From positions 72,946-136,945 of IMG/VR virus record IMGVR_UViG_3300032038_000010: a DNA stretch of 64,000 bases; one strand, written 5' to 3'. The notes beneath the pieces were generated by a model. That model did no database searches. It was not told where the DNA came from and saw only the letters and a program-made list of their open reading frames with translations. The DNA is from a virus. Its lineage: Duplodnaviria; Caudoviricetes. The number at the start of each line of letters is the position of its first letter. The first letter of the stretch is position 1. Of the stretch, positions 16,417-47,289 are shown piece after piece. Both the position numbers and the translations under genes were made by a program.

Positions 16417-17349
16417 ATGATAATTGTTTTAACAATATTGATTATAATATTAATCATATTGTTATTGAAAATGTGGCAAGATTTAAAACAAACAAAAGCA
16501 TTTAAAGCAAAATAGATTGCTGATGCGACCGCCGCGCAAGAACAATATGATAATCTTATAAAGTCAATTAATGATTTAAACCTTGAAAAGGTTAAATTAT
16601 ATAGTGAAATTGAAACTCAAAAGAAAAATATAAATTCAATATATGAATCTGAAACCGCTCGTATTCAATCTGAGATTGAACGATATAAAGATAAAGCTAC
16701 TTACGCTGCTGAAGAATATGTTAATTCATTAAAACAATCATATGTGAAAGCAAAGTAGCAGCATGACGCACAATTATTACAGTTAGAAGAGGATAAAAAA
16801 GAATCCGAATTAGCTTTAGATAAAATACGTCAATCTTTAAGCGCGGGGGTCCAAGCTAAATTAAGATAGCAAGAAAAACGCACTCAATTAGATTTTTATA
16901 AATTAAACATTACAAATACTGAACTACAAGATATACAATTACTAGAAAATGTAAAATTAAATTTACATAATCCGATAATTTTAAGTAAACTTATCTGGAG
17001 TACATATTTTCAAAAACAAACTAATGAACTATGTAATAGAGTAGTTGGTGTAGATAAAAAATGTGGTATTTATAAAATCACAAATATCAATACTGAACAA
17101 GTATATATTGGACAAAGTGTTGACATTGGTTCTCGTTGGAAACAACATATTAAGTGCGGTCTGGGAATAGACGCTCCCGCAACCAATAAGTTATATAACT
17201 CTATGCAAAAAGATGGAGTTTGGAATTTTTCTTTTGAAGTTCTCGAAGAATGTCCGAAAGATCAACTAAATGAAAAAGAAGCTGAATGGATTAATATGTA
17301 TCAAAGTGATAAATTCGGATATAATAGTACAAAAGGTAATAAAAGTTAA
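16417..17349 (+). CDS. Membrane-anchored coiled-coil GIY-YIG nuclease (3 recoded TAG: 16513, 16756, 16867)
   Basis: One frame with only TAG interruptions: N-terminal TM helix, coiled coil, then CGIYKITN...VYIGQSVDI..RW..H...GYN. Missed by the ORF track. Confidence 0.85.
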
Positions 17350-17360
17350 GGAGTTTAAAT

Positions 17361-17987
17361 ATGGTAGAAATTCCTACGATTGCAGATACGCTGCAGAAGG
17401 TAAAAAATAGTAAGTAGGCTTATAAAACATATGAAAATGCTATAAACAGTCTATCATATTGGAAGCGACATTTAATTCTTGGAGTAATCGAGGATGATAC
17501 TGGAGAATCTATTGAAAGTATGATTAAATTCTGGAACGCTCAAGATGATGAAGCTAATGTTCCAGTAGATAAAAGACAACCTATTTTACTCTTTGTTGAT
17601 TCACCTGGTGGAGATTTATCTGCTGCTTTTACAATTATTGATTCTATTGCTTTTTCAAAAACACCTGTATATACTATTAACATAGGCTGCGCATATAGTG
17701 GTGGTTTCTTTGTATATATTGCAGGTCATAAACGGTTTACCTATCCGCACGCATCTTTCCTTTACCACGAAGGAAGTACAGAAATTGGTGGAGACGCAGG
17801 TAAATTTCAAAACTTTTCTGATTTCTATAAAGAACAGTTAACTGAATTAAAAAACATAACCTTGAAATATACAAAGATTTCAGAAGAACTTTATAATGAG
17901 AAACGTCGAGATGATTGGTGGATTACTGCTGATGAATCTATTGAATTAGGCGTTAGTGATGAAGTTTTAGACCATTTTATATATTGA
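17361..17987 (+). CDS. clpP: ClpP-like protease (recoded TAG at 17415)
   Basis: AAGGAG RBS before ATG 17361; DSPGG, AYSGG, LYHE, DWW.TA.E..ELG motifs. Confidence 0.85.
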
Positions 17988-17996
17988 GGTTTATTA

Positions 17997-18668
17997 ATGA
18001 AATTTGAAAATACAGAAGTAATGAATTTTAAAGGGGCTTTCAGAGGATTGCGTAATCCTCTTGAGTCCTGGTCTAAATCAGATAGCTCATTTGATAATGG
18101 GATGACCATAATCGGAGAAAAAGACTTGAATCTGGCGCAACGCATGATTAAAGCTGGATCAAGTGATTCTAAATTTCTTCGACAGATTTTTGTGTCTGTA
18201 GACATCACGGGCCCGTTATACTGGCTCAAGTAGCTAGACACTTACAAAGTAGCGACTGTTGCTAATAGCACCTCAACGATGCACAAATTAGCGTCCACTC
18301 CTATTACAAAAGAATGTTTTGAAATGGGAGATTATAACAATCTTAAAGTATATGATAATGAACCATATAAAATTAATGATTATACTGATGATTGTTGGGA
18401 TGAAATAATTAATATTTGCGAAACACTTCGTCAAAGATACAATGAAACAAAAGACCAAAGGTACTGGAAAGAATTAATTCGTATCTTACCAGAGTCTTGG
18501 CAACAGACTAGAACTTGGACAAATAATTATGCGGGCCTCCGCAATATTTACTTTCAAAGAAAAAATCATCGTTTAACTGAATGGTCAAATGATTTTTGCT
18601 CTTGGATTAAAACTCTTCCCTATGCAGCAGAATTAATTACATACCAGCCAGAGAAATCTACTGATTGA
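17997..18668 (+). CDS. ThyX/Thy1-like flavin-dependent thymidylate synthase homolog (recoded TAG at 18231)
   Basis: KFLRQI.V.VDIT.PLYWLK*LDTYKV..VANSTSTMHKL...RKNHRL.EW; the two track ORFs are in one frame across the TAG. Confidence 0.75.
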
Positions 18669-18750
18669 TTTTTTAAAAAACTTTTGCTATAATATTTATA
18701 GAAAGTTAAGAAAGAACAGCTATTATTATTTTCTATTAAGGAGAAAACTA

Positions 18751-19680
18751 ATGAGAAAGAACACAAATCAGGAACAGATTGAAGGAAGAATTTATCAGCA
18801 TAATCTTCAGGAAAAGATTACTGGAGAAACCAGTAAGCATCCTGGAACACCATTTATTGCTGGTACAATTGATGTAGCAACAGATGAACGGGGACTCAAT
18901 ATTCTCACAGTTCATTATACATATGTAACTGAATCTACAAAGAATGGTAATAAGAACGCTTCTTATGCAAATCTCAAGAGGATCATTGATAATGGTAAGA
19001 CTATTACTAATGATGGCATTGAGAACGCATGGAAGGTAAGACTCACGCCTGCAATCGCACTGAATGATTTCTACCCACAGGGGCAGGATGATCTCGTATC
19101 TCAGCCTCGAAATGAGGGCGGTTTTGTATCTATTATTTCAGAGCTTCATCCAGAGGGAATCGAGAGAAATAAGTTTACAGCGGATGTCCTTATTAATAAG
19201 GTAGACCATGTTGATGCAGATGAAGAGAAGGGTATCACAGAAGATTTCGTTCGTATGAACTGTGCGGTATTTAATTTCCGTAATGATATTCTTCCATTTA
19301 CTTTCGTAGCAAAGAATAAGGATGCTATGAAGTATTTTGAAGGACTTGAACTTCCTTGCTATACTAAGGTATGGGGCAAGATTGTAAGCTCTACTCAGAC
19401 TGTTAGACATAAGACTGAATCTGCTTTTGGCGGAGACGCAGTTGATACAACAGAGAAAAGAGTTCGTGAGTGGGTTGTAACAGGCGCTCAGAAGGAGCCT
19501 TATGAGTTCGGAGAAGAGAATGTTATGACCGCTGATGAAGTTAAGGAAGCGCTTGCAAATCGTAATGTAATGCTTGCTGAAAACAAGAAGAGAAGCGAAG
19601 AGTATTACGCAAAGAACGGAGCTACTTCAACATCTTCCAAGACAGATGCGGCAGTCCCCGCAGGTGGATTTAATTTCTAA
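18751..19680 (+). CDS. Single-stranded DNA-binding protein (putative)
   Basis: OB-fold-like composition, aromatic C-terminal tail, position before the Sak4-like gene. Confidence 0.6.
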   Translation: MRKNTNQEQIEGRIYQHNLQEKITGETSKHPGTPFIAGTIDVATDERGLNILTVHYTYVTESTKNGNKNASYANLKRIIDNGKTITNDGIENAWKVRLTPAIALNDFYPQGQDDLVSQPRNEGGFVSIISELHPEGIERNKFTADVLINKVDHVDADEEKGITEDFVRMNCAVFNFRNDILPFTFVAKNKDAMKYFEGLELPCYTKVWGKIVSSTQTVRHKTESAFGGDAVDTTEKRVREWVVTGAQKEPYEFGEENVMTADEVKEALANRNVMLAENKKRSEEYYAKNGATSTSSKTDAAVPAGGFNF

Positions 19681-19756
19681 TTAATCACTATTTTATGTAG
19701 AGGGGATTATTGATAAAATAATCCTCTCATATTTTTCTATGAAAGGATGACTAATA

Positions 19757-20791
19757 ATGGCAGATATTAATATTTTTAACATTCAGCCGCATCAGGTTAG
19801 TCGTGATATGAGAGGATATTCCGTATTCTTCTACGGCGAACCAAAGAGTGGCAAGACTACCACCGCATCAAAGTTTCCAAAGAGTCTTTTGCTTGCATTT
19901 GAAAAAGGTTATAATGCGCTACCTGGAGTTATGGCACAGCCTATCAATAGCTGGGCAGAGTTTAAAAAGGTTCTTCGCCAGCTGAAAGAATCTCAGGCGC
20001 ATGAGATGTTTGAAACAATCATTATTGATACATCTGATATTGCGTATGACTATTGCACAAAATATATCTGTGATAATGCGCCTCGTTCAGATGGTGGATT
20101 TGGTGTTGACTCTATCTCAGATATTCCTTATGGTAAAGGATATGGAATGATTTCAAAAGAATTTGATTCATGTCTTCGTTCTATTGTAATGATGGATTAT
20201 GGTCTTGTTATCATTTCTCATGCAACCGATAAGACTTTCACTGATGAACAGGGTCAGCAGTATAATAAGATTGTTCCTACTCTTGACAAAAGAGCAAATA
20301 ATATTGTATCTCGTATGTGCGATATTATTGGATATTCACGTATTGTAACCGATAAAGAAGGCGTTGAATCTACAAAACTTTTTATTCGCGGTACTTCACG
20401 TTTTGAAGCTGGATCAAGATTTAAGTATACTCCAGATTATATTGATTTTAATTATAAGTCTCTTGTCAATGCTATTGGTGATGCTATCGACAAACAGGCT
20501 AAAGAAGATGGAGAAGAGTATTTTACTGATACTCGTAGCAATCTTTATGAAGATACTACTAAGAATCTTGATTTCGATGAACTTATGGCTACATTCAATA
20601 GCCTAGTTAAATCTATTACGGATAAGGCTTCTGATGAAGAAATGCAATCTTTTTGGGCGCCTCGTATTCAATCTATTACAGATAAATATCTTGGTAGAGG
20701 AAATAAGGTTAATAATATGTCAAGAGAGCAGGTTGAAGCTCTTTCACTTATCAATGATGACTTGTCTGAATTAATTAATTCAAAAAAGTAA
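19757..20791 (+). CDS. AAA_24 / Sak4-like ssDNA-annealing ATPase
   Basis: YGEPKSGKTT, LLAFEKG, IIIDT and IISH motifs. Confidence 0.8.
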   Translation: MADINIFNIQPHQVSRDMRGYSVFFYGEPKSGKTTTASKFPKSLLLAFEKGYNALPGVMAQPINSWAEFKKVLRQLKESQAHEMFETIIIDTSDIAYDYCTKYICDNAPRSDGGFGVDSISDIPYGKGYGMISKEFDSCLRSIVMMDYGLVIISHATDKTFTDEQGQQYNKIVPTLDKRANNIVSRMCDIIGYSRIVTDKEGVESTKLFIRGTSRFEAGSRFKYTPDYIDFNYKSLVNAIGDAIDKQAKEDGEEYFTDTRSNLYEDTTKNLDFDELMATFNSLVKSITDKASDEEMQSFWAPRIQSITDKYLGRGNKVNNMSREQVEALSLINDDLSELINSKK

Positions 20792-20903
20792 ATTCTTTAA
20801 TATATACTAGATTTTTTTAAGAGGAAGATAGATAATATCTTCCTCTTTACTTTTTTATAAAAATATGATATAATAAATATAAGAATGAGGTGATATATTT
20901 ATT

Positions 20904-21428
20904 ATGACAAAACATATTGTAATATGTCCATTCTGTAAACAATCTTTCGATGCACAACCCGAAGGAGAAAATAAAGAATGGATTAAAATCAAACGCCGTT
21001 ATGCTCATATGTCGTGTTATATTGATCATGAACAAAGCATGACTCAAGAGGAAAAAGATTTAAGAGATTTAGTAACATATATACAACAATTATTAGGTGA
21101 TGATTATGTATATATGAAGGTAAAGAAACAAATAGAAGAATATCATAATAAATTTCAATATTCATATACAGGAATGTTGTCGTCTTTAAAATGGTATTAT
21201 GAAGTTCAAAACAATAAAACAGATAAAGCTAATGGTGGCATAGGAATAATTCCATATATTTACAACGATGCTAAAAAATATTATTATAATATTTATTTAG
21301 CACAGCAGAAAAATGCCACTATAACAAACTACCAAGTGCCAGTGAAAGAAATTTCAATCCAGTCCCCTCGGATGTATGAGCGGCCGCCGCACTTATGGTT
21401 TGAAAATGATGAGGAGGATGAAGATTAA
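20904..21428 (+). CDS. Conserved replication-module protein (Zn ribbon, GGIGIIPY motif)
   Basis: CPFC...HMSC; immediately upstream of the helicase. Confidence 0.65.
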   Translation: MTKHIVICPFCKQSFDAQPEGENKEWIKIKRRYAHMSCYIDHEQSMTQEEKDLRDLVTYIQQLLGDDYVYMKVKKQIEEYHNKFQYSYTGMLSSLKWYYEVQNNKTDKANGGIGIIPYIYNDAKKYYYNIYLAQQKNATITNYQVPVKEISIQSPRMYERPPHLWFENDEEDED

Positions 21429-22972
21429 TGGCACAACCAAGATATGTTGATATTCCAGCTATTGTACAAGTCATTGGAAGCGTTTATCAAAACCCAAATC
21501 TATTAGATAATGAAGCGTATCATATTACAGAAGATGATTTTACTGAAAAATTTCATAAAGTAATTTTCGGTTCTATTTATAATCTTCATATGCTAGGCGC
21601 ACAAAAAATTAATATCAATACAATAGAAGATTATCTTGGACAAAGACCAACAAAATTAGCTATCTATAAAACTAATAAAGGGCCAGAATATCTGGAAAAT
21701 CTTCAAGAATCAACTCAGGTCGAGTCTTTTGATTATTATTACAAAAGAATGAAAAAAATGACTTTACTCCGTATGTATAATGAGCGAGTCGGAATGGATT
21801 TATCATGGTTGTATGATATTAATAATATTCTTGACATAAAGAAAAAACAAAAGCAAGAAGATTGGTTAGATAATACTCCTATTGAAGATATAGCTAATCA
21901 AGTTAATGATAAAATTGAACAAATCAAATCAAAGTATGTTGATAATGCAGATGACAGCTTTTCCGAAGCAGGAGAAGGTATTGAAGATTTAATCGTCCGT
22001 TTACAAAAATATCCTGAAGTTGGTTATCCTCTTTATGGTGCTTTAAATAACTCTATACATCGCGGCGCCCGCCTCGGTAAGTTATATCTTCGCAGCGCGG
22101 CTACAGGAGTTGGTAAAACTAGAGCCATGGTGGCAGATTGTTGCACTATTGGATGTGCAGAATTATATGATTCTACCACGGGTTCATGGATAGCAAATGG
22201 AACTAAAGAGCCAGTTGTATTTGTAACTACTGAGCAGCAGCTAGATGAAATCCAGACTATGATGTTAGCTTTTATAGCTAATGTCAATGAAGATCATATT
22301 CTTGACAACTCGTATGGAACAGATGAGTTAGAGAGAGTCATGCACGCCGCACAAATCCTCAAAGAGTCTGACATTCATATCAAAAGATTACCAGACTTCA
22401 GTTTGCAAGATATTGAAAACACAATTAAATTTAGTGTACGAGAATATCATGTAAGATATTTCTTCCATGATTATATTCATACTTCAATTAAAATTCTTAG
22501 TGAGATTAGTTCAAAAGCTAGAGTTCAAGGATTGCGTGAAGATAATATTTTGTTTATGATTGCGGTCCGCCTAAAAGATTTAGCAGTTGAGAATGGTATC
22601 TTTATTGAAACGGCTACTCAGTTGAATGGTGATTATCGAACAGCTCAAACTTACGACCAAAATCTTCTGCGTGGAGCAAAAAGTATTGCAGATAAAATTG
22701 ACGTAGGTGAAATAATGCTTGATGTATCTCAAGAAGATAAAGAAGCATTAAAGAAATTAATTGAACAAAATGGTTTTCCGATTCCAGATACTAAAATATC
22801 AATTTATAAAAATCGTAGAGGAAAGTATAAAGATATATTAGTTTGGTGTTCAAGTGATAAGGGCTGTTGTAAAATCAATCCTACTTTTGTAACTAATTAT
22901 CAATATGAATTACTAGATATTCCAGCATTAAAAATTACTGTTACTCCGAGAGAAGAGGAGTCCGCATTTTGA
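21428..22972 (+). CDS. DnaB-like replicative helicase
   Basis: SAATGVGKT, DYI, ATQLN, LRGAKSIADK and KNR motifs. Confidence 0.9.
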   Translation: MAQPRYVDIPAIVQVIGSVYQNPNLLDNEAYHITEDDFTEKFHKVIFGSIYNLHMLGAQKININTIEDYLGQRPTKLAIYKTNKGPEYLENLQESTQVESFDYYYKRMKKMTLLRMYNERVGMDLSWLYDINNILDIKKKQKQEDWLDNTPIEDIANQVNDKIEQIKSKYVDNADDSFSEAGEGIEDLIVRLQKYPEVGYPLYGALNNSIHRGARLGKLYLRSAATGVGKTRAMVADCCTIGCAELYDSTTGSWIANGTKEPVVFVTTEQQLDEIQTMMLAFIANVNEDHILDNSYGTDELERVMHAAQILKESDIHIKRLPDFSLQDIENTIKFSVREYHVRYFFHDYIHTSIKILSEISSKARVQGLREDNILFMIAVRLKDLAVENGIFIETATQLNGDYRTAQTYDQNLLRGAKSIADKIDVGEIMLDVSQEDKEALKKLIEQNGFPIPDTKISIYKNRRGKYKDILVWCSSDKGCCKINPTFVTNYQYELLDIPALKITVTPREEESAF

Positions 22973-24060
22973 AATATGATAAAGATGAAATAAAAAATTC
23001 ATTAACAATAGAGCAAGTAGAACAATTAGTAGCAGAACTTGGCGGCGAACCTCGCCGTCAAGGAAACTATTTAGTATGTGCTACTATATGCCATAATCAT
23101 CCAGGCGAAGGCTCACATAAATTGTATTATTATAATAACACAAAATTGTTTCGTTGTTATACTGAATGTGACGATACTTTTGATATATTTCAATTACTTA
23201 TTAAAATTCATAAACAAAATGGAGAAGATTGGACACTATATAATGCAGAATCTTATATAGTAAATTACTTCTCGCTTGATTTTGAAGAAGATTTTTTTGA
23301 AGAACGTTCAAATCTTCAAGATTGGCAAATTTTTTCCAAATATAAAGAAAATAATCAAAAATCTGATAGTAAAAAAATAATCAATCTTCAAACTTTTGAC
23401 GATGCATTTTTACATAATCTGCCGCAGCCGCATATTATTCCATGGGAAAAAGAAGGTATCAGTTATAACATTGAACAATTAAGAGGTATCAGATTTGATC
23501 CTGCTAATTATGGAGTAGTTATTCCACACTATAATATAGATAATAAATTAGTAGGGGTCCGCGAACGAACTCTAGTAAAAGAAAATGAAATATATGGAAA
23601 ATACCGACCAGCAGTAATAAATAGAAAAATGTATAACCACCCGCTTGGGTATAATCTTTATAATTTAAACAATAGTAAAACAGCAATAGCGGCACTCCAT
23701 AAAGTCGTAGTCTTTGAAGGCGAGAAGTCTAGTCTCTTATATGCGTCTATGTTTGGTCCAGATAATGATATATCTGTAGCTTGCTGTGGAAGTAATTTAA
23801 TTTCATATCAATTTAAATTACTTTATAATCTTGGAGTTAATGAAATTATCATTGCTTTTGATAGACAATTTCAAACCCTTAAAGATAAAGAATGGCAAGG
23901 TTGGACAAAGAAATTAAAAGATATACATAATAAATATGGCTCAATTGTGCAAATTAGTTTTATGTTTGATTTAGATAATAAATTAAATTATAAAGATAGT
24001 CCAATAGATCAAGGCAAAGATACTTTTATGTATTTATTTCAAAATAGAATACAGCTGTAA
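22969..24060 (+). CDS. DNA primase
   Basis: Zn finger (CHN...CYTEC) plus TOPRIM (FEGEKS, AFD, KDSP.D). Confidence 0.9.
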   Translation: MKYDKDEIKNSLTIEQVEQLVAELGGEPRRQGNYLVCATICHNHPGEGSHKLYYYNNTKLFRCYTECDDTFDIFQLLIKIHKQNGEDWTLYNAESYIVNYFSLDFEEDFFEERSNLQDWQIFSKYKENNQKSDSKKIINLQTFDDAFLHNLPQPHIIPWEKEGISYNIEQLRGIRFDPANYGVVIPHYNIDNKLVGVRERTLVKENEIYGKYRPAVINRKMYNHPLGYNLYNLNNSKTAIAALHKVVVFEGEKSSLLYASMFGPDNDISVACCGSNLISYQFKLLYNLGVNEIIIAFDRQFQTLKDKEWQGWTKKLKDIHNKYGSIVQISFMFDLDNKLNYKDSPIDQGKDTFMYLFQNRIQL

Positions 24061-24139
24061 GGAGATGTCATGAATTGACATCTCTTTTTTTTTATGTTAT
24101 AATAAAAATAGAAATAAAAAGTAAAAAGGACAGATTAAA

Positions 24140-25906
24140 ATGAAATATAAATTAATTAAACCTATCAATCCGCAGTATTCTACGGTTGAACAAATACTAA
24201 CTAATCGCGGCATCCCTATTCAAGAAATTCATCATTATCTTAATACAACAGATAATGATATTAATTCACCTTCTCTATTTGGAGAAGATAATTTAAAAAG
24301 AGGGGCGGCCGCACTTATAAACACTATCAAGTCAGATAATACAATGATTATTGTAGTAGATGCTGACTGTGATGGCTTTACATCATCTGCAATATTAATT
24401 AATTATTTACATGATTTATTTCCACATTGGGTAGAAACTAAATTATCTTGGTATTTACATTCAAGCAAACAACATGGATTGAATGATTGCATAGATTGGA
24501 TTATTGATAAACAATTTAATTTAGTATGTTGCCCAGATTCATCTAGTAATGACTATAATGAACATCAGCGTTTAAAGGAATTGGGTATTGATACGATCGT
24601 ATTAGATCACCATGAAGCAGATAAAATTGATGATAATGCAATTATTATTAATAATCAATTATCATCATATCCAAATAAAGAATTATCTGGGGCAGGTGTG
24701 ACCTGGCAATTTTGTCGTTACATAGATAAATTATTAAATACTACTCATGCCAATAATTATTTAGATTTAGTGTCTCTCGGCGATAATGCAGATATGATGA
24801 GTATGACTTCTTTTGAAACTAAACATTTAATTCAAAAAGGGCTAGAAGATGAAAACCTAAAAAATCCATTTATAACATACATGGCAGATAAGAATAGTTT
24901 TTCATTAAAAGGAAAATTAACTCCTATCAATGTTGCATTTTATATTGCACCATATGTTAACGCTATAGTAAGAAGCGGCACTCTTGAAGAAAAACAAGTT
25001 GTATTTGAATCAATGTTGCAATTTAGAGCTTTTGAACGAGTTCCTTCTATAAAGCGTGGGCATAAATTAGGAGATACTGAGTCAATAGTAGAACAAGCAA
25101 CACGAATTGCTACTAATGTAAAAGCTCGTCAGACAAAAGCTCAAAATGAAGGAATGTTGACTATTGAAAATATGATTCAAGAACAACACCTTCTTGACCA
25201 TAAAGTTTTATTATTCCTTATTGAAGCTGGTGCTATTGATAAAAATATTGCTGGATTAATTGCAAATAAAATAATGTCTAAATATCAAAGACCAGTTTGC
25301 ATTTTAACAAAAGTAAATGATGAAGGTACTATCTCTTATCAAGGCTCCGCTCGTGGATGTGATAAAACTGGAGTAAATAATTTTAAAGATATATGCAGTC
25401 AAACTAATGCTATTTTATATGCGGAAGGCCATCAAGGTGCTTTCGGACTCGGCATAGAAGAAGATAAAATTCAAGATTTTATAAATAGAACAGATGAAAT
25501 ATTAAAAGATATTAATGATGAACCTATTTATTTTGTAGATTATATTTATCAATCTAATACTATCAACCCTCAGAATATCTTAAATATTGCAGACATGGAT
25601 AATTTATGGGGGAAAGATATTAACGAAGCACTAGTCGCTGTTGAAAATATAAAAGTTACTTCAGATATGGTAACTGTATATTCAAAGAAAAATTTAACAA
25701 TTAAAATCAATTTACCAAATAATATTAGTGCGATGATTTTTAACGCTTCAGATGAAGAAGTAGCAAAATTACAAACTAATAATACAGGATATGTTGAAAT
25801 TAATCTTATAGCAAAATGCAATCGTAATGAATGGATGGGCAATATTACACCTCAATTATTTATCGAAGATTGGGAAACTACAGACTCAAATAAATACTAT
25901 TTTTAA
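24140..25906 (+). CDS. recJ: RecJ-like ssDNA exonuclease (DHH family)
   Basis: DADCDG, DHH, SGAGV, GSARG and GH..AFG motifs. Confidence 0.9.
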   Translation: MKYKLIKPINPQYSTVEQILTNRGIPIQEIHHYLNTTDNDINSPSLFGEDNLKRGAAALINTIKSDNTMIIVVDADCDGFTSSAILINYLHDLFPHWVETKLSWYLHSSKQHGLNDCIDWIIDKQFNLVCCPDSSSNDYNEHQRLKELGIDTIVLDHHEADKIDDNAIIINNQLSSYPNKELSGAGVTWQFCRYIDKLLNTTHANNYLDLVSLGDNADMMSMTSFETKHLIQKGLEDENLKNPFITYMADKNSFSLKGKLTPINVAFYIAPYVNAIVRSGTLEEKQVVFESMLQFRAFERVPSIKRGHKLGDTESIVEQATRIATNVKARQTKAQNEGMLTIENMIQEQHLLDHKVLLFLIEAGAIDKNIAGLIANKIMSKYQRPVCILTKVNDEGTISYQGSARGCDKTGVNNFKDICSQTNAILYAEGHQGAFGLGIEEDKIQDFINRTDEILKDINDEPIYFVDYIYQSNTINPQNILNIADMDNLWGKDINEALVAVENIKVTSDMVTVYSKKNLTIKINLPNNISAMIFNASDEEVAKLQTNNTGYVEINLIAKCNRNEWMGNITPQLFIEDWETTDSNKYYF

Positions 25907-27503: not shown

Positions 27504-27505
27504 TT

Positions 27506-28188: not shown

Positions 28189-28599
28189 ATGAAAGAAGTA
28201 AAAAGAACTGAGCGCGGATGGGCTGGACATTTTTGCTGTTCTAGGGACTGCGCCTTCCGCAGAAATACTTTGCTTGAGTATAAAAATAAAAAATGGATAA
28301 TTTCAACAGTAGGTTTACAAATTTGCAGGCATACTATATCGCCCTATTGTAAAGAAGGTGATGTAATGACCATTGGATACAATCGTTGGTATGAAACAAT
28401 GGCATTTGAATCCCTTTATAATGAATATGATGACGCGGATGTTACAAAAGAGATTGAATTTGAAAGTGACTGGGGCATTTGGGGAGAGACATGGGAAGAG
28501 GTTATGGAAAAATATAATCAGCATCCTGATCTTGCAGCAAATGAAATGCATGAAAAAATTGTTGAAGAATTGATGGAGAAAATTAAAAATGAAATATAG
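28189..28599 (+). CDS. Hypothetical protein (ends at TAG; extends to 28617 if TAG is read)
   Basis: GAGGT RBS; RTERGWAGHF motif. Confidence 0.7.
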   Translation: MKEVKRTERGWAGHFCCSRDCAFRRNTLLEYKNKKWIISTVGLQICRHTISPYCKEGDVMTIGYNRWYETMAFESLYNEYDDADVTKEIEFESDWGIWGETWEEVMEKYNQHPDLAANEMHEKIVEELMEKIKNEI

Positions 28600-28780
28600 A
28601 TTAGTAGAAGAGAATAAATTAAGACGTTTAATTGAATCTGAGATGATATATAATGAACTTTGCGCTTGGGGAGTAGATAATTGGACTGGATTTGATGAAG
28701 TTAAATTTCCAGATATTGATGATGTTGAAAAAGAGTTAAATAAGTTTGATAAATTCGAGGAGCGTGATTCTGATGATTAA
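28589..28780 (+). CDS. Hypothetical protein (GVDNW motif)
   Basis: 63 aa, translationally coupled. Confidence 0.6.
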   Translation: MKYRLVEENKLRRLIESEMIYNELCAWGVDNWTGFDEVKFPDIDDVEKELNKFDKFEERDSDD

Positions 28781-38684: not shown

Positions 38685-38685
38685 A

Positions 38686-38931
38686 ATGGCATATCTAGTA
38701 AGAACAACAGAAGTGTATAGACTGGATTCTGAATCTTCTGCTAAAGCATTTATTGAAGAGCAAAAGAAAAATGGCTCTTATGAAATCGTTAAATATTCTA
38801 GCGAACTTCGCCAGACAAAAGTAAAAGGCGAAATTGCTGATGAATGGTATCGAGTTACTATTGTAAAATCATTTAATAATGAAAAAGAACCCACAGAAGA
38901 AATTACAGTACATTATGGAGATGAAGATTAA
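38686..38931 (+). CDS. Hypothetical protein
   Basis: AAGGAG RBS; within the operon. Confidence 0.7.
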   Translation: MAYLVRTTEVYRLDSESSAKAFIEEQKKNGSYEIVKYSSELRQTKVKGEIADEWYRVTIVKSFNNEKEPTEEITVHYGDED

Positions 38932-39362
38932 TGAATATTAAAGTATTAAACGATCTAGCAACAATTCCGACAAGAGGCAGTGAATATGCGGCGGGCCTCG
39001 ATCTGTATGCAGCAACGTCTGGACCTGTAGATATTGCACCGCACTCTACAGTAAAAGTAGGGACTGGTATTGCAGTAGAAATTCCAGAAGACAATTTTGG
39101 TGCTATATTCGCAAGATCTGGTCTTGCTACAAAACGTGGACTGCGTCCCGCAAATTGCGTAGGCGTGGTTGATAGTGACTACCGGGGCTAGGTAATTGTT
39201 GCACTCCACAATGATACTGATGAACTTATGACTATCGAAGCGAAAGAACGTATCGCGCAACTTGTAATTGTGCCTTATGTCGCTGTTGATGTAACACCTG
39301 TTGATGATTTAACTGATACACAGCGTGGTAATGGTGGTTTTGGTTCTACTGGGAGAATGTAA
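38931..39362 (+). CDS. dut: Trimeric dUTPase (recoded TAG at 39189)
   Basis: AGLDL, RSGLA and GVVDSDYRG* before the TAG; RIAQLV and [10 protein letters not shown] (motifs 4 and 5) after it. Confidence 0.95.
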
Positions 39363-39589
39363 TGAGAAAAGAAAAAACTATTACTTTGCATAATATTAAT
39401 GATATAACAACTTTTGTACGTTTAGCTACTCTTGTAGAAGAAGATATAGATGTACAAAGTGGGCGATATATTGTTGATGGAAAATCTATTATGGGGATTA
39501 TGTCAATTGATATTTCTAAACCGTGTAAAGTAACGTATCCAGAAGATGCTACTGCTTTTGAGGATTTTCTAATTCAATTTGAAATTTAA
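39362..39589 (+). CDS. HPr-like PTS phosphocarrier protein
   Basis: GRYIVDGKSIMGIMSID (Ser46 motif); 75 aa. Confidence 0.8.
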   Translation: MRKEKTITLHNINDITTFVRLATLVEEDIDVQSGRYIVDGKSIMGIMSIDISKPCKVTYPEDATAFEDFLIQFEI

Positions 39590-39591
39590 GT

Positions 39592-39620
39592 AAAAGAGAG
39601 GCGAAAGCCTCTCTTTTTTT
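39592..39620 (+). terminator. Intrinsic terminator
   Basis: AGAGAGGC-GAAA-GCCTCTCT followed by a T-run. Confidence 0.8.
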
Positions 39621-39825
39621 ATGCAATTTTAAATCAGTTGCCGTTCTGTAAGTAAAATTTTTCATTTTTAACCTTATCTTCATTAAGACAAAATTCGATA
39701 ATCTTTTTATCTAAAATTTTATATAATCATAGAACTAGTATTGACTTTTCAAAAATTTTATGTTATTCTAGAGTCAGAATAAAGAATACATAAGATTAAT
39801 CTATATGAAAGGATATAAATAGACT

Positions 39826-40320
39826 ATGATTATATTAGCATTAGATATTTCTACTCACAGTACTGGCATAGCTGTATTTGATGATACAAAATTAATACAT
39901 TATGAATGTGCAGTTGCATCTTCTACTAATACTTTTAATAGAATTGATAAAATTACAACACAAATTGAAAATGTTGTTGAAAAATATAAACCCACTAAAG
40001 TAGCTATAGAAGATCCATTACCAGCAGAGTCTGGCCATAATATGTCTACATATAAAAAACTTACCTGGGCGCAAGGCATTATTGGAGATATGTTAAATCA
40101 ACATAAACTGAATTTTGATAGGCTATATACTTCTTCAGAGTGGCGCTCTAAAGTAGGAATCGCAACAGGAAAAGGCCGCAAAAGAGAAAGCCTTAAACCA
40201 AAAGATATAGCAAAAGCTAAAGAACTATTTGGAGTAGAAGAAAATGATGATATTGCAGATGCGATTCTAATCGGTAAAGCATATGCAGACTAGGCTTGTA
40301 ATGAAATAAATTGGGAATAA
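39826..40320 (+). CDS. RuvC-like Holliday junction resolvase (TAG at 40291 probably read through)
   Basis: LALDIST.STG, IED, SEWR and DDIADAILIG motifs; next TAA at 40318-40320. Confidence 0.85.
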
Positions 40321-40375
40321 AAAGATGCGGGAGCCCGTCCAATGTATGGATATAACTGGCTCCCGCGATTTTTGT

Positions 40376-43066
40376 TTAACTAAAGAATAACATATCTCCA
40401 ATATTATGGCTATGTCTTTTTCTTTTTTTATCTTCCTCCTGCTTTATATAATATAGTCCATATATAAAAGCAGAGAATTTATCTTTAGGTATTCCTCTAT
40501 TACTTTGTTTCAGAATAATATTAACGCCTTCATTATCTTCAACAAGATTAAGCATTTGCTATTTTAATCTAGTTGTCAAATTGAACGGTACAAGATAAGT
40601 ATTTCGCTCATCTGAAGTCATCGTCTGTCCGCGCTTAGTCCCCATCAATTTAAGTTTAGCCTGCTGTTCATCAATTAAGAATTTAATCTTACCACTGCTC
40701 ATTTGAGTTTGTGCATAAGAATACGCTTCTGTATTAATAGGAGCATTAGCCTTCATTAAGAACATAGCGTCATTCTCAAAGTCTGGGCCTTTTGCTTTTT
40801 TATACTGATTAGCAACATCTTCATTAGTTCCGCCCTCAACCCCAAATGGAGGTAAATTATCTCCAGTCTCAGGATCAATTTGAGCTTTTGTCATAAAATC
40901 AATCAAACCGACACCAAGACCATTAGCATCAATAGATAATATTCTAGCATGATATTTATAATACAATTTCTTTAATTTAACTGCTTGTACTTCAAAGTCT
41001 TCTGCTTCATAAGTATATATATTAACTAATGATTTAAGCGCCGCCCCTTGCGGCTGAGGATAAACTTTAAATACACAAGCTTCTGTAGTACATCCGATAC
41101 GGCCTACATCAACCCCAATTACATAATAAGCATTTTTAGCATTGCGCGAACTGTACTCATATTCAGGCTGATTTAATGTTCTATGTTTATCAAACTTCTC
41201 TGCTGAATAAAAAGCATTTTCTGCATCACCAGACCAAATTGAACGATATTCTCGATCAAAAGAATCTTCATTATATGTACCTTGTAATTTTAATTGATCT
41301 ACAAAGTCTTCATCAAGAAGTCCTTCATTAACTGGTGTTTCATAAGTACCGCCAAGAATCATATATTTATCTGGTTCAATAACTGATTGAACAAAGATTT
41401 CAATTAGCTTGTCATAAGCAAAAGAGTTTTTCCAACCTGCGGTAGTAATATAAATTTGCGATTTATTAGGTAATTCAGTTCTATCTCTTGAACCGTCAGG
41501 TAAAAGTCTATCTACGTTAGTAGTAGGAATAAGAACTTCATTAAGAATATCTCCATCAATTAATACACATTCCTCAAGGAGAAGACTATTACGACGTTGG
41601 CCTCTAGAACTTTCTCTTGCTGCAAGAATGTCAATTTCTGAACCGTTTTTAAATACATAATGAACATCATCTTTTGTGTGCTTAGTTTTACCACGTTCCC
41701 AGTTAATTTCATTGGCAAGAGGTGGAATCAGCCGACAAATTTCATCTATCTTAGCGATGGTAATGGAGGCAGCCTGTTCTTTCAGGATTGTTATCATAAG
41801 GCTTTTTATCCTTATTTCTTATACTTGTTATTCGTATAAGCTCAGCATATCTTTTCATCTACGACTTTACGTTTAGATGTCGCGGCCTCGTGGAGGGATT
41901 ATACTTGTCAATCTCACCCTCTATGCGTTGCCCCTGACTCCTTATCTGCTAAAGAAGCCTTCGGTTCGGATTAGCATTTCAGCTTTCCCGCTTAATTCCG
42001 CGATTTAAAGGTTTTATATATTAAATTTCTTTAATATTGGGCAAATTAATATTTTTATGATATTGACTACCATTAGTAATAAAGTCTTGATAATGTTCAT
42101 ATTTTCTATCTAAATAAATATTACTATCTTTATATAAATAAGTAAGAAAATTATAAACATCTATTAGACTACTAAAAACATATCTTTTTGCTCCGTCTTC
42201 TCTATGGCAAATAAAAATTTTATTATTTTTATTAATATCTAAATCTAGGGCATTTAAACTGCCTTTAATAAAGTCTTCTGTTCCAATCCATCCAACTTGA
42301 AAACAACTAGACGTATTAGTAAACCATCCATCTCCATCAAAATATCCTCTTAAAAAATGTCTCGTTAATTCAGAAGGAACTTGTTCCTAAGTCGGATATT
42401 TTAAAATTAATGATTTTTTAGGAACACAGCCTTTATTAATTAAATCTTGTTTACATTTATCACTTCTAAAACTCATTCGATATGATTTAGAAGATTCTCT
42501 ATACCCAATTTTATTAGATATTCCCATAAAATTTCTAAATTTTTCAATTTGATGTAAATCTTTTTCTGCTAATCCCAATTCGATTTTATCTTCTTTAGAA
42601 CCAACAGAACCATCTGCGTAAAGAAAACCAAGCCAATATGCTTTTTCTTCTGTGTCAATATGCTCAAATTGTGTAAGGACGTTTTTTGTACTCATTTCGT
42701 ACTCCTCCTGTAAAAATATTAAATAAAAAGTTTACCCCCTGTACTAATCGCGGCGTGCTACCCTGGGTAGAACACTGCTCTTAGCATCAAGCCCATCATT
42801 GATAAGAAAGATTTAGAGAAAGCACGAGGGAAAGTAGCATACACAAAGCGATGCCGCATGATCACTCTTAAATAAACTCTTTGATAATAGAAGAATTTAA
42901 AAGTTGAATCTTCGCCTTTTATTTGATCAACAAATATATCTGGATAAGCTCGATAAAAAGAAATCAAATTCCGCATTTCAGGAAGAATTGCTCTAATTCT
43001 ATCTTCAGTTACGTCTTGCTGGACAATCTTATCATCAGATAGAGACAATAAATTAGCTAGACTCAT
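40376..43066 (-). CDS. terL: Terminase large subunit, spliced (exons 43066-42734 and 41782-40376; recoded TAG at 42758 and 40559)
   Basis: FPRAFSKSF (Walker A region), spliced TGG|KEQA, RGQRR, LEE, DREY, GVDVGR, IDANGLG; KDKFSA nuclease motif lies after the TAG. Confidence 0.9.
41783..42733 (-). mobile_element. Group I intron in terminase gene
   Basis: Exon ends GGGGGU; intron ends ...AAUCCUG; core elements including AAGATATGCT lie at about 41800-42000. Confidence 0.88.
42021..42695 (-). CDS. Intron-encoded double-motif LAGLIDADG homing endonuclease (recoded TAG at 42387)
   Basis: YWLGFLYADG and FLRGYFDGDG motifs on either side of the TAG; YL.RK tail. Confidence 0.9.
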
Positions 43067-44328
43067 GACTCTTCCTCCTCAGACTCGCCTGCATCTTTAG
43101 CGGCTTCCGCGGCTTTAAACTCCTCAAAGTCAGCCATATCTTGATCTGTGACTGGCACATAATTAAGTCCTTGAGATTTTGCTTCCTATCTGTCTCGCTT
43201 TTGAGACTCTTGAATCTCTTTCTTCTTCATGTAATCTTCAATTTCTCTTGACAGCGAAGGATCTTCTTTAACAAGATTACTATAATATTCTTTCATATCA
43301 TTAATATCTTTATCAACTATATCAAGAGGAACTTCAAGATTCCATTGAGGTATTTTTCCACCTTCTTTTTCACAAAATGCTACTACTTGACCAATAGCAT
43401 CAAAGATACCATCTTTATCGACCTTATTCTGTGCAGCGGTAAAGTTTGCGGATTTTCTTAAAGACTCATAGGTTCTAGTTAATTTAGAGAATCCATCTAG
43501 GTCTCCCATGTCAAGAGCCTGATTCATTTTAAGATTAACTTTGCAAATAGTAATCAATGTATTTTGGCTGTCTGGAGTTTCATCGCTGATACCAAATTTC
43601 TTAGCCATTTTAACATAATTACTTTCAAGCTGTACCCATTCGTTAGGCTTATAAAGGCGGCCCCACTTCATAGCAAGATATTTTTTATCATCATCTGTAA
43701 GGTCGGCCGCAGGATTCGGGAGGTCAGTCTCGCTAATGAAAGCATCCTAGTCCATCCGATTACCGACCGCCGCATCTATGTCTTTACTATCTGTTGGTGC
43801 AAGCTCCGCATTTTGTATCTCTGTTGGCATGAGAGTTTGATATTCCGCTTTAGAAATCTTACCTTCCGCAAGGTCATTCCGTAGTTTTTGTTCATACTCA
43901 TGCCGCTCTTGTATTTCTTCTTCTGTCTCTTTCCGCGCTTTTGCTTTATTCATTTCAAGAAGCATTTCTGTGTCATCCCAACCATAGCTAGTCCATGGTT
44001 TGATCTTCATAGCAGACAAATACTTACCTACGACAGAAATACCAGTTAGATTTGGATTTTTAGCAAAAGCGCGGTCTCTTAATGTATTCCACTTCTCTGG
44101 AATATAAGGAACATCCAAATCTTTCAAAATCCATGTAAAAGTTTCTGGGTCAAAATTATCTACATGCATAGTAAGACAACGCTTACACATTTTTGTCTTA
44201 CTACCATCTTTGTACTGATAAAAATTATTTGATTTGCTCCAAGTTCTTTCCTTTTCACAATAGCACATATCTTTTTCATCAGGGATTTGACCTTTTGGCT
44301 CGACTTTTTTAGTTTCTTCTTCAGCCAT
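43063..44328 (-). CDS. Conserved protein upstream of terL, terminase small-subunit candidate (recoded TAG at 43747 and 43186)
   Basis: Read-through of two TAGs gives one ORF whose TGA overlaps the terL ATG (ATGA); Cys cluster and KWG motif. Confidence 0.75.
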
Positions 44329-44334
44329 TAATTA

Positions 44335-45480
44335 TCAAACTCCTTTCACTAATTTAATTTGCTTATGCTTATTTTTTGCATTGCGGCAATCTTTACATAT
44401 AGAATAAAAGCCATCTTTACTTGTCTTATTTTTTGAAAAGAACATACTGTGAGCTAATTTAATTTGACCACAGCGTGAGCATCTCTTCCATTTACCCTTT
44501 TCTACATTGGTATAATACCAGGTCAAATAATCTTTTTGAGCGTGGTCCGCAATCATTTTAGGTATTTTTTTGCGCCAGAGAGACGAAAGATATTCAATGG
44601 AGTGCCGCACACCAAAATCTCGTTGAAGAAGGCTTTGTATTTCTTCATTAGTCTTACCATCAATTTTATAAATAACTAAATCATAATACATAGGATATTC
44701 TTCTTCAAGAGTCTAATCAATAAGATTTTCTAAATCAATAATTGCCCATTTAGCATCACTATTGACTTTATCCCAACTATCCATTTTTAGTTTAGAATAA
44801 TGACATAGCACTGCGCTTACTACATCTGGGTTGAGGAAACTGAAGCCTCTAACCTATAGAGTTCCATCTTCTTTAATTTTAATATCTTCTTCCCAAGACA
44901 TAGTAGAGAAGCTCTTGATGCCATTTGAATAAGGCATTGTAGGATGATAGGCTGCTTTAAGTACATATTGGTCTTTCCGCATTTCTATCATTTGCTTTTT
45001 CAATAAATATTTCTTTTTACCTGTTGCTAAATCGCATTGCTTTTCAATTTCCGCAATACTATCTCTAAGTTCTTTTAGCCCAGGTATTTCTGCGACATCT
45101 GTTTCAGTAATTCCAATTTTAGGTGTGAAGATAATATTTTTATCATTTGCAATCATATTATAAATACCATCTTCGCCATTTTCAAAAGTAGCAACTAAAC
45201 CTTCAAAAGACATTTCACGCTTATTGACAGTTACCATTCTATTCTAAGTAATAATCTTCTTTTGTTTACGTTCTTCTTTGTCCATAGCAAATACTATATA
45301 GTCAGATAAAATTTCTAAGTAACGTGGTGTTAATTTTTCTGAAGGAGTTTGCTCAATAATTTTTTTAACTAATTCATTGCGGGCAGCCGCTGTCTAGAGC
45401 TTATAGTCTAGTTTAAGTGGTTGATTAGACTCGTCTAATTCCGCATTAGACGGGGCCGCCGCATTATTATATTCTTCCAT
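44335..45480 (-). CDS. Hypothetical regulator with HTH-like region and C-terminal Zn finger (recoded TAG at 45394, 45244, 44854, 44713)
   Basis: Single frame from ATG 45480 (AGGAG RBS) with only TAG interruptions; CSRC...CKDC. Confidence 0.75.
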
Positions 45481-45549
45481 GCTTAAGTACTCCTTTTATG
45501 TTTATTAGCCTCCAACTTCAGGTAAGCCTTATTTCAATTCTATACTTAT

Positions 45550-45578
45550 AGTATACCAGAAAATTTTTGAATTGTCAA
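45550..45578 (-). promoter_or_regulatory. Sigma-A-type promoter of the terminase operon
   Basis: TTGACA-17-TATACT on the minus strand. Confidence 0.65.
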
Positions 45579-45658
45579 GACTCGATTAAACACTTTTGAC
45601 TTGAAAGTTACAAAAAATTATTATATAATATTTATATAAAGTAAAGGAGATAATAATT

Positions 45659-45835
45659 ATGAGTAAATATATTGATCCAAATAATCCTGGGTATGAAGAT
45701 CCAAGAGAACAATCGATTGGATGGCGTGGCGAAGGGCGGCCGCTTGGGATTAAAACAGAGGCGTGCCCAGTTGATGGACATTATTGTGAGCAGCCGCAAT
45801 GTGAGAACTGCAATTTTGAAGAGGTGTCTCAATGA
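45659..45835 (+). CDS. Small Cys-rich hypothetical protein
   Basis: AAGGAG RBS; 58 aa; ATGA overlap with the next gene. Confidence 0.6.
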   Translation: MSKYIDPNNPGYEDPREQSIGWRGEGRPLGIKTEACPVDGHYCEQPQCENCNFEEVSQ

Positions 45836-46269
45836 TTATTACATTAACTGGTCATAGACCGCCAAGATTACGGGGACAAGAGAAAGAAATCAAAACTTGG
45901 CTAAAAAATATTTTACATTCTTTTGGAGAAAATAATATTTGCATTTCTGGGATGGCTGCAGGGGCAGATCAATTATTTGCGTATACAGCAATAGAAGAAA
46001 ACAATAAATTATGGTGCGCTTGGCCTTATCATAAAAAGAATCGAGATTATGCAGAATATTTAGAAGATCATGCTGATAATATTATTTTTGTAAATCAAGA
46101 TTATAGTCCTGATTGTTATACCATAAGAGATAAATTTATGGTAGACCAAGCTGATATTGTATTAACTGTTTGGGATGGGAAACCATGGGGCGGCACTTAT
46201 AATACAATAAAGTATGCAGAACAGCAAAATAAAACAATCATTGAATATAGAGGATTAAAAAATGAGTGA
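45832..46269 (+). CDS. SLOG family (YspA/DUF1273-like) protein
   Basis: TGHRP, SGMAAGADQ, RD.FMVD, WDG...GGT..T motifs. Confidence 0.85.
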   Translation: MIITLTGHRPPRLRGQEKEIKTWLKNILHSFGENNICISGMAAGADQLFAYTAIEENNKLWCAWPYHKKNRDYAEYLEDHADNIIFVNQDYSPDCYTIRDKFMVDQADIVLTVWDGKPWGGTYNTIKYAEQQNKTIIEYRGLKNE

Positions 46270-46996
46270 AGCATTAAAAGCGCGGGCGGCCGCTCGTCAC
46301 CAAATGATACTGGACCGATTTGCGGGAGCGACGGCCGCAAGTATTAAATCAAGTAAAATTTATAAAGAAAATAGTGTATTTATTCCAAAGGGTAGCTGGG
46401 TTAATACACATACTGTCTTAGCTGATAACAACTCTGTGGGGGCGATTGATAGATACTCCGAAGGGCGGACTGCAGTCCTTAATTTTGCGAGCTTCCGCAA
46501 TCCAGGCGGCGGTTACATGCAGGGAATGATGGCGCAGGAAGAGGCACTATGTTTCGCATCTAATCTTTATGAGGTTTTATCTAATTTTGAAGATTATTAT
46601 GAAGAAAATCGAAAAGATTTAAATGGCGGGATGTATTATGATAGAGCTATTTATTCGCCTGATATAATCTTTATGTATCATAATAAACAAATTAAGTGCG
46701 ATGTTATTACCTGTGCGGCGCCCAATTTAAGAAACGCTCAAGGAGATAGAATAAGGAATCATAAGGTATTGGTCCAGCGCGCGCACTTCATTAATCAAAT
46801 AGTTGAAGATAATAATGTTGATACATTAATTCTTGGCGCATATGGATGCGGAGTTTTTAGACAGAATCCTTATGAAGTTGCGGAAATATTTAAGAATGAA
46901 TTTAAAAATACTACGGTAAAGAAGATTATTTATGCGGTTCCCGCAAATTTAAATGAAGAAAATTATTATGCTTTTGAAGAGGTGTTAAATAAATGA
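46262..46996 (+). CDS. Bacterial-type PARG macrodomain (TIGR02452/DUF2263)
   Basis: LNFAS..NPGGG...G..AQEEALC, ITCAAPN and LILGAYGCGVF.Q.P motifs. Confidence 0.9.
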   Translation: MSEALKARAAARHQMILDRFAGATAASIKSSKIYKENSVFIPKGSWVNTHTVLADNNSVGAIDRYSEGRTAVLNFASFRNPGGGYMQGMMAQEEALCFASNLYEVLSNFEDYYEENRKDLNGGMYYDRAIYSPDIIFMYHNKQIKCDVITCAAPNLRNAQGDRIRNHKVLVQRAHFINQIVEDNNVDTLILGAYGCGVFRQNPYEVAEIFKNEFKNTTVKKIIYAVPANLNEENYYAFEEVLNK

Positions 46997-47289
46997 TTAT
47001 ACAAGATTTACGATATGAAGAGTTAGTACCTTCTCCATATAAATATCTTGCTTTTGAATTACCTGTTGATAAAAAGGGTTAGTTATTGTATGATATAGAA
47101 CAATCAATGAGGATTCTTCAAGTAATTCAAGAAGGTACTGGGAAAAATTATGCTGGCTATTTTGCTATTATGCCACAAAATGTAATAAGAGAAATGGCTA
47201 AAGAAGATATTAAACAATATATTAAAGTATTAGAGAGGATGATAACAGATGGCGAGACGAACGAATGTTCTGAAGATGACAGCGACTAA
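46993..47289 (+). CDS. Hypothetical protein (recoded TAG at 47080)
   Basis: ATG overlaps the PARG stop after GAGGTG; in frame with the 47086 ORF across the TAG. Confidence 0.6.

Follow-up and report, generated by a model that had tools for sequence, protein, structure and literature searches.

In the tailed-phage record IMGVR_UViG_3300032038_000010 (IMG/VR; Duplodnaviria, Caudoviricetes) TAG functions as a sense codon in some of the genes, and comparison with homologs and relatives shows Glu to be the residue that evolution treats as equivalent to it. The reading that we favour, with a probability of roughly 0.8, is that TAG specifies Glu in this phage and is read by a phage-encoded tRNA(CUA) charged with Glu. 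The DNA analysed, referred to below as the window, is a stretch of 64,000 nt (positions 72,946 to 136,945 of the record) for which an original prediction, made from the letters alone, had proposed that TAG means Glu rather than the usual Gln. The record is one contig of 136,945 bp, with a 180-bp direct repeat at both ends, and the window makes up its final 64 kb; the G+C content of the record is 32%. The genome encodes DNA polymerase III alpha, an anaerobic ribonucleotide reductase, helicases, ClpP, dUTPase and a split terminase. It also has a long tail module, a diversity-generating (DGR-type) reverse transcriptase (RT) and some 19 tRNA genes in an array. This is the genome of a tailed phage of gut Firmicutes, 137 kb in size and distantly related to the phage Phass-1 and to large Enterococcus phages. 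Its 679-amino-acid tail protein is about 29% identical to tail proteins of 134–142-kb Enterococcus phages, no close nucleotide relative was found among GenBank phages, and the 879-amino-acid tail protein, used as a query for related loci in IMG/VR, returned no relative.

All 17 in-frame TAGs on which the original prediction was built were found to be in-frame codons of open reading frames (ORFs) that are open solely with TAG read through (plus strand 16513, 16756, 16867, 17415, 18231, 39189, 40291 and 47080; minus strand 40559, 42387, 42758, 43186, 43747, 44713, 44854, 45244 and 45394; positions are those of the window unless marked as genome). With TAG taken as sense, ORFs of 100 amino acids or more cover 83% of the 136,945-bp genome instead of 65%, and the greedy/curated ORF set for the whole genome holds 215 in-frame TAGs (about 166 internal, 14 in the last 12 codons and 35 in the first 30 codons). 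In each of the 14 genes with TAG inside the last 12 codons it is followed by TAA or TGA. The checked full-length genes have no comparable internal TAA or TGA, as had been noted originally, and the placing of conserved motifs downstream of TAGs was likewise borne out: the dUTPase, terminase and LAGLIDADG read-through products are full length against homologs and free of internal TAA and TGA, and that of dUTPase aligns with solved dUTPases as far as the C-terminal GGFGSTG motif.

The TAGs are confined to certain genes, namely the tail module, the DGR-type RT, terminase, a sigma-like gene, dUTPase and homing endonucleases. They are packed most densely on the minus strand at genome 30–60 kb, outside the window, where the RT gene has 13 TAGs, three tail proteins have 21, 22 and 23, and a 3140-amino-acid protein has 20. 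The frequency in tail, RT and terminase genes is 15.3 per 1000 codons, whereas about 35 kb of replication genes (942–15746 and 18751–38931) have no internal TAG at all. The TAG-rich genes would be late or structural and the TAG-free genes early in expression. Use of the codon also varies between relatives. L032 (ENA ERZ28653713 scaffold_1379; about 58% protein identity) lacks in-frame TAG throughout its long ORFs (2740 codons) and L031 (GCA_020860045.1 contig JAJBVB010000042.1; about 58% protein identity; binned with a 'Ruminococcus sp.' metagenome-assembled genome, MAG) has very few, both counts concerning the sigma-like/YonG/terminase/head region, so that recoding is not uniform across the clade.

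The sites that decide the identity of the residue lie outside the window, in the RT and tail genes at genome 30–60 kb. For the RT, 120 database homologs were aligned and one 96%-identical sequence, which has Q at every TAG site, was left out (119 used); most simply, this sequence carries the same TAGs stored as Q. At RT residue 128, a TAG, E is found in 119/119 homologs, at residue 123 in 105/119 and at residue 269 in 90/119 (with D in 21/119), and E is the commonest residue opposite the TAG at residue 214; the solved Bordetella DGR RT (bRT; 8ub7) likewise has E at the positions of residues 123 and 128. Among the 21 TAG columns of the 679-amino-acid tail protein E is dominant in 11 and D in four more. 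A position-weighted, pseudocounted column likelihood was calibrated on known residues of the same proteins, and each of the true E, Q, K, D, N, S, T, R and A classes was assigned correctly. With this calibration the TAG columns gave E +13.6 and Q −0.9 nats for the RT, and E +29.1 and Q +3.5 nats for the tail protein, and the TAG columns had the profile of true E sites rather than of true Q sites. The tail-protein E columns show a spurious enrichment of Q, because the public protein collection stores clade proteins 'with TAG=Q' (P0001, P0121–P0360; L006–L009, L020–L023, L029, L030). The relatives are also partly non-independent, many database sequences coming from one 62%-identity clade. Pyrrolysine, Asp, Lys and Ala as readings of TAG were ruled out by the likelihoods. 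Composition also points, weakly, to Glu: there are 55.6 Glu codons per 1000 in TAG-rich genes, or 70.9 with TAG added, compared with 68.1 in TAG-free genes, and for Gln the TAG-rich genes already have the higher figure (42.3 versus 33.9 per 1000).

As stored proteins hide the codon, the DNA of relatives was fetched and codons were compared directly in four related lineages represented by independent assemblies, with likelihoods that use substitution profiles estimated from the same alignments. Pooled, the partners of TAG were GAA/GAG in 94 cases and CAA/CAG in 18. Against the closest relative, L009 (88% amino acid identity), TAG paired with sense codons for E 16 times, Q 4 times and D 3 times (n=29), E being the best residue and Q 51 nats behind. 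In the 62%-identity clade the counts were E 23, D 11 and Q 7 (n=72), again with E best and Q at −29 nats, and true Glu sites in that clade have almost the same profile (E 0.39, Q 0.10, D 0.10). The TAGs of two further lineages, one of them from a bovine metagenome, faced E in 10/17 and 23/39 cases, respectively, with Q 18 and 42 nats behind, and the reverse comparison, in which TAGs of relatives are set against sense codons of this phage, also gave E. In the terminase large subunit (TerL), five TAGs of the relative L029 lie opposite D, E, E, E and E. Among the Glu partners of TAG in L009, GAG made up 12/22 against a background of 32% (p=0.02), a weak enrichment that was absent in relatives more distant than L009. 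With these margins, and with columns that are mainly E rather than dominated by Q, the preference for Glu originally read from a few sequence contexts is upheld.

Phass-1 served as a control in one and the same alignment (7171 aligned codons, 37% identity). The TAGs of Phass-1 returned Q (12/44, the next residue being 11.8 nats behind) whereas those of the phage described here returned E, with Q 8.3 nats behind, so the method can tell Gln from Glu and the two lineages differ.

The genes of the window that bear on the argument are the following.

16417–17349, plus strand: GIY-YIG endonuclease gene of the group-I-intron type (Pfam GIY-YIG at residues 215–303; NCBIfam TIGR01453), with TAGs at 16513, 16756 and 16867.
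17361–17987, plus strand: ClpP-like protease (Pfam CLP_protease at residues 70–204), with TAG 17415 in an N-terminal extension.
17997–18668, plus strand: phrog_6721 protein (PHROG match, E 8e-58), with TAG 18231.
28189–28617, plus strand: replication-block gene from the stretch without internal TAG; its first stop codon, TAG 28597, is backed up by TAA 6 codons on and exemplifies the terminal TAGs.
38931–39362, plus strand: dUTPase (Pfam dUTPase, E 4e-30), with TAG 39189 in the motif DSDYRG-TAG-VI.
39826–40320, plus strand: RuvC-like resolvase (Pfam RuvC), with TAG 40291 and TAA 9 codons later.
40379–41782, minus strand: terminase large subunit, exon 2 (79% identity to L029 TerL), with TAG 40559.
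41783–42730, minus strand: intervening sequence in the terminase gene, a gap between the TerL alignment blocks that holds a LAGLIDADG ORF (42021–42695) with TAG 42387.
42731–43066, minus strand: terminase large subunit, exon 1 (aligning to residues 1–114 of L029 TerL), with TAG 42758.
43063–44328, minus strand: YonG-like protein (phrog_3314 by PHROG match; Pfam YonG_N in the orthologs of relatives), with TAGs 43186 and 43747.
44335–45480, minus strand: sigma-factor-like protein with a C-terminal zinc-ribbon/HNH-like tail (phrog_5767, E 5e-51), with TAGs 44713, 44854, 45244 and 45394.
46993–47289, plus strand: 98-amino-acid ORF, open solely with TAG read through, with TAG 47080 and no family match in PHROG or NCBIfam.

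On the window alone the case for Glu is modest, and it is the whole genome that settles the matter. From the homolog columns the window sites could be divided into five groups. Four sites lean to Glu (18231, 39189, 43747 and 45244) and three do so partly (40559, 43186 and 44713), one leans to Gln (45394), two are uninformative, being Ser/Ala or mixed (42758 and 44854), six have no usable homolog column (16513, 16756, 16867, 17415, 42387 and 47080), and one is a near-terminal TAG with TAA behind it (40291). This per-site tally is limited to a curated gene set; some codon pairs of the further lineages came from wrong-frame ORFs. At 18231 the family consensus WKEFDTYKV on which the original prediction drew proved accurate: homologs read ..WWKEFDTYKV.., with E in 131/150 and Q in 19/150 cluster representatives, and the relatives L064–L066 have E. 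The idea that the Q entries in this column are all hidden TAGs was rejected, since the one Q sequence that was checked has a genuine CAR codon under table 11. The site favours Glu yet tolerates Gln (13% of the family). The label 'ThyX-like' first given to this gene found no support in Pfam, NCBIfam or the PDB. The usual dUTPase motif DYRGE also held at 39189, where E is present in 3/4 and T in 1/4 of the best PDB alignments and L029 and L030 have GAA. In the YonG-like and sigma-factor-like genes, four relatives have GAA, TAG, GAA and CCT at 43747, GAG, CAG, TTG and GCA at 43186, GAT, GAA, GAT and GAT at 45244, GAG, TTA, CGA and AGA at 44713, and AAG, GAT, CAT and GAT at 44854. The motif IIT*NRM, originally placed in terminase, belongs to the sigma-factor-like gene.

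The terminase gene is split, with exons at 43066–42731 and 41782–40379 on the minus strand and about 950 bp between them, and in relatives it is uninterrupted (581–589 amino acids). A tblastn search with the uninterrupted 581-amino-acid TerL of L029 gave 79% identity over residues 114–581 (468 residues), including 60 after the TAG at 40559. The column of this TAG has Ala in L029 and TAG, GAG and GCA in three other lineages. TAG 42758 says nothing on Glu because its column is Ser, Ser, Ser and Ala in four relatives. In the LAGLIDADG ORF the Pfam LAGLIDADG_3 match (residues 111–130) lies downstream of TAG 42387, and the insertion is probably a group I intron.

An anticodon-loop scan for a tRNA able to read UAG gave a cloverleaf candidate with Glu-like rather than Gln-like features at genome 23216–23289 (L002:3216–3289), outside the window and directly after tRNA-Tyr in the array. 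Its minimum-energy fold is an exact cloverleaf with anticodon loop CU-CUA-AA. The acceptor has C1-G72 and G2.U71, pair 7-66 is unpaired, U8 and C9 follow, and the discriminator is A73; the D stem consists of G10.U25, U11-A24, C12-G23 and U13.G22, and there are a 4-nt variable loop AGAA (A46) and a 5-bp T stem. The first RNAfold result, an 8-bp acceptor with extra bases, was discarded when comparison with the L024 tRNA described below set the start of the canonical register at genome 23216. In E. coli the tRNA-Glu identity set consists of U11-A24, U13-G22..A46, absence of residue 47, U34 U35 C36 A37, G1-C72 and U2-A71, and those of its features that lie in the D arm are determinants for glutamyl-tRNA synthetase (GluRS). 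The candidate has the tRNA-Glu-type augmented D helix (U11-A24, U13.G22, A46, 4-nt variable loop), and the closest to it among the phage's own tRNAs is tRNA-Glu(UUC). The phage genome has no gene for GluRS, glutaminyl-tRNA synthetase (GlnRS) or a release factor.

At the syntenic place in the array of L024, a relative from the 62% clade, ARAGORN detects a tRNA(CUA) (array order suppressor, Pro, Gln, Gln, Arg, Cys, then a DUF2828 gene). It has the same C1-G72, G2.U71, 7-66 mismatch and A73-CCA, and also U11-A24, and between the two tRNAs pair 6-67 shows a compensatory G-C to C-G change. The marks of tRNA-Gln (G73 and a U1/A1 first pair) are present in all four tRNA-Gln genes of these phages and in 3/3 Phass-1 suppressors but absent from both tRNA(CUA)s, which have A73 and C1-G72. 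As far as these nucleotides indicate, the suppressors sort with the codon meaning deduced from the proteins. An exact anticodon-arm search of IMG/VR retrieved unrelated canonical suppressor tRNAs only, a degenerate pattern for the candidate found nothing in IMG/VR or JGI metagenomes, and its one match in GTDB genomes, in Finegoldia, was a chance match and not a tRNA.

Other tRNAs of these arrays are also unusual. The tRNA-Pro(UGG) at genome 23651–23723 (L002:3651–3723) lacks the D-loop GG and has the T loop GGCAG(C/G)A, as in the CUA candidate. In a relative the orthologs of both have the normal T loop TTCGAAT; the odd T and D loops shared by the candidate and tRNA-Pro suggest an altered elbow contact. 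In L024 (4387–4462, 4658–4730, 7804–7874) the CUA suppressor has C33 for U33, a second tRNA has a 6-nt anticodon loop with CUA, and a third has anticodon CCA with A33.

In the mechanism that we propose, the phage tRNA(CUA) would read UAG after being charged with Glu by the host GluRS, as would be expected because the tRNA-Glu-type D arm, the 4-nt variable loop with A46 and A73 are kept. It would escape GlnRS and the Glu-to-Gln amidotransferase and stay charged with Glu because it has a strong C1-G72, no weak U1/A1 pair and no G73. Genes with internal TAG (tail, DGR, packaging, sigma-like factor and homing endonucleases) would be completed only once the suppressor is made, so that its supply might gate late functions as in other recoded phages. 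Genes ending in TAG would gain a short tail only, because TAA or TGA follows, and the damage from read-through would be limited. It is quite probable that a clade of large gut and rumen Firmicutes phages reads TAG as Glu, a code described for no virus to date, by means of such a diverged tRNA-Glu-like suppressor while its sister Phass-1 reads it as Gln, the codon having been captured at least twice in one phage group and for different amino acids.

Several results weigh against this. The assignment of Glu is drawn from substitution patterns only. About 10 of some 88 informative sites are Gln in relatives, among them 45394 in the window (CAA, CAG, GAA and CAA, that is, Gln in 3/4 relatives), and the Q partners in L009 (4/29) exceed the 1–2% seen at true Glu sites. 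Comparison with the standard-code Enterococcus phage VRE9_4 (37% identity, 27 sites), which is too distant, favoured no residue. In this genome neither ARAGORN nor Rfam at E≤1 detected a tRNA(CUA), because the T loop (GGCAGCA) of the candidate is unusual and its D loop lacks GG, and its folding energy is no better than that of shuffled sequences (z −1.0). The G1-C72, U2-A71 and anticodon UUC of tRNA-Glu are absent from the candidate, in which U35 and A37 alone are kept of the anticodon-loop elements. By overall similarity the L024 suppressor is not clearly nearest to tRNA-Glu; its top matches were Cys, Asp and Gln, and this isotype call was not used.

The Gln partners could mean that decoding is ambiguous, TAG being mostly Glu and partly Gln at sites that would need to tolerate both, either through partial amidation of Glu-tRNA(CUA) or because the phage's own tRNA-Gln(CUG) reads UAG by a first-position G.U pair. 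The excess in L009 (4/29 against about 2% at true Glu sites) speaks for this, and both E and Q are found in relatives at several sites. However, one transition suffices to turn TAG into CAG and can by itself account for the extra Q partners, the Q share in the 62% clade (10%) equals that at true Glu sites, and TAG occupies positions where Glu is invariant. We regard ambiguous decoding as unlikely. Improbable to about the same degree is that TAG already means Glu in the host and the phage merely shares this code, with no phage-driven switch, as the binning of L031 with a 'Ruminococcus sp.' MAG might be taken to imply. Such a code fits poorly with patchy use of TAG (about 35 kb of replication genes without internal TAG versus 15 per 1000 codons in TAG-rich genes) and with several genes that have TAG as first stop and a backup stop nearby, one such TAG being kept in three lineages. 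Nor would it call for a candidate tRNA(CUA) of the phage's own or lead one to expect a relative such as L032.

Ordinary code 15, in which TAG means Gln and the E-rich columns merely show where TAG arose, is the translation used for these genes by public databases (TAG=Q) and accords with the phage-encoded tRNA-Gln(CUG) and tRNA-Gln(UUG), with the minority of sites that are Gln in relatives (45394 in the window, genome 43308 and 68814) and with the Q found in part of the family at 18231. We consider it very improbable, as TAG stands at invariant Glu positions of the RT fingers region, Q trails in all four codon-pair comparisons (by 51, 29, 18 and 42 nats) as well as in the column profiles, the same method does return Q for Phass-1, and the candidate suppressor has neither G73 nor a weak first pair. 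That the TAGs are G-to-T errors of GAG, or mark pseudogenes, is a formal possibility with nothing further in its favour and can for practical purposes be set aside, in agreement with the original prediction, since independent assemblies from other samples carry the same TAG codons (31 in common with ENA ERZ27291660 and 25 with Logan SRR32996355), the sequence after the TAGs is conserved, about 166 internal TAGs are matched by no internal TAA or TGA in checked full-length genes, and the TAGs cluster in particular genes.

Some further features of the genome were seen. In the ClpP-like gene the standard-code ORF is 17520–17987 and TAG 17415 may lie upstream of a true start at 17520. In the RuvC-like gene TAG 40291 is one of two things, a leaky stop or a sense codon backed up by a second stop; L029 and L030 also have TAG at the aligned position, so that three lineages keep it, as though selection favoured leaky termination or a short extension made conditionally. 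The homolog of the GIY-YIG endonuclease in L065 has 16 TAGs, with TAG 16867 in common and Ala opposite 16756. L065 has two GIY-YIG genes (1143–2111 with 16 TAGs in 322 codons and 9601–10323 with 6 TAGs in 240 codons) adjoining replication genes without TAGs, and their TAGs face mixed residues in the phage described here (A, E, D, D, Q, W). The DGR-type RT gene (phrog_1423; 8ub7-like) is at genome 31843–33078 on the minus strand (L002:11843–13078), outside the window, where it adjoins tail-fibre genes, and is absent from some relatives (L006 vs L007). Between 47300 and 64000 the window has few ORFs of at least 100 amino acids whatever the stop-codon reading, and this is probably a region of small (early) genes rather than non-coding DNA because relatives carry a run of many genes of 40–150 amino acids at the equivalent place. 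Orthologs of window genes in L029–L032 and L064–L065 match Pfam YonG_N, YonD_N, YonB, YorF and YorH, families named after proteins of Bacillus phage SPbeta, which hints that the group may be distantly akin to SPbeta-like phages.

Amber suppressors that insert Glu at UAG have been made in the laboratory (1990s collections) by changing the anticodon of an E. coli tRNA-Glu body to CUA, and they have been reported to mis-insert some Gln; these are engineered, whereas here a natural, diverged candidate tRNA would serve about 166 codons. Among natural systems the nearest is Phass-1, of the proposed Phassvirus group, with TAG=Gln (PMC10607447; GenBank OQ749652; NCBI 'Caudoviricetes code 15 clade'). 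Like the present phage it has a genome of about 136 kb, terminase, tail and other genes with in-frame TAGs, and no dedicated synthetase; its tRNA(CUA) suppressors, like the candidate here, belong to a large tRNA array. The structural proteins of the two phages are homologs (the 679-amino-acid tail protein is 32% identical over 98% of its length) without any similarity at the nucleotide level. Phass-1 differs in that its TAG sites behave as Gln, both here and in PMC10607447, and in the G73 and U1/A1 first pair of its suppressors, where the candidate of the present phage has A73 and C1-G72. In crAss-like, Lak and other recoded gut phages TAG=Gln has been shown by metaproteomics (PMC9523058), and suppressor isotypes of Gln, Trp, Ile and Tyr have been predicted in phages (theta-ribozyme paper, PMC10879173). 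These phages share the placing of TAG mostly in late or structural genes with early genes compatible with the standard code, a phage-encoded suppressor tRNA (in the present phage a candidate), and backup stops after terminal TAGs; they differ in the amino acid, and the papers found describe no Glu isotype and no TAG=Glu. Among protists, UAR=Glu is known from peritrich ciliates and from Blastocrithidia (NCBI tables 30 and 31; PMC12153298), whose nuclear codes likewise read UAG as Glu through a tRNA-Glu-derived tRNA with a stop-matching anticodon; these codes are eukaryotic nuclear and genome-wide, with UAA reassigned too, and are not those of a virus inside a host with another code.

The original prediction held that UAG=Glu is undescribed in phages, and our literature search, which was not exhaustive, found no report of it; Gln is the reading given in the Phass-1 paper, in a paper on stop-codon annotation and in the theta-ribozyme paper. 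That phages recode stop codons is already known, but assignments so far treat TAG as Gln and pipelines hard-wire table 15. If the Glu reading is correct, databases would be wrong for about 1.5% of the late-protein residues in a phage clade widespread in gut and rumen, including invariant acidic and even catalytic residues of enzymes, with effects on structure prediction, function calls and expression, and a natural Glu-inserting amber suppressor would be on offer. Phage codes would then be more plastic than has been thought, two related lineages giving one codon different meanings, and the route to such a change would be a simple one, requiring a tRNA-Glu body that carries anticodon CUA and avoids the Gln pathway.

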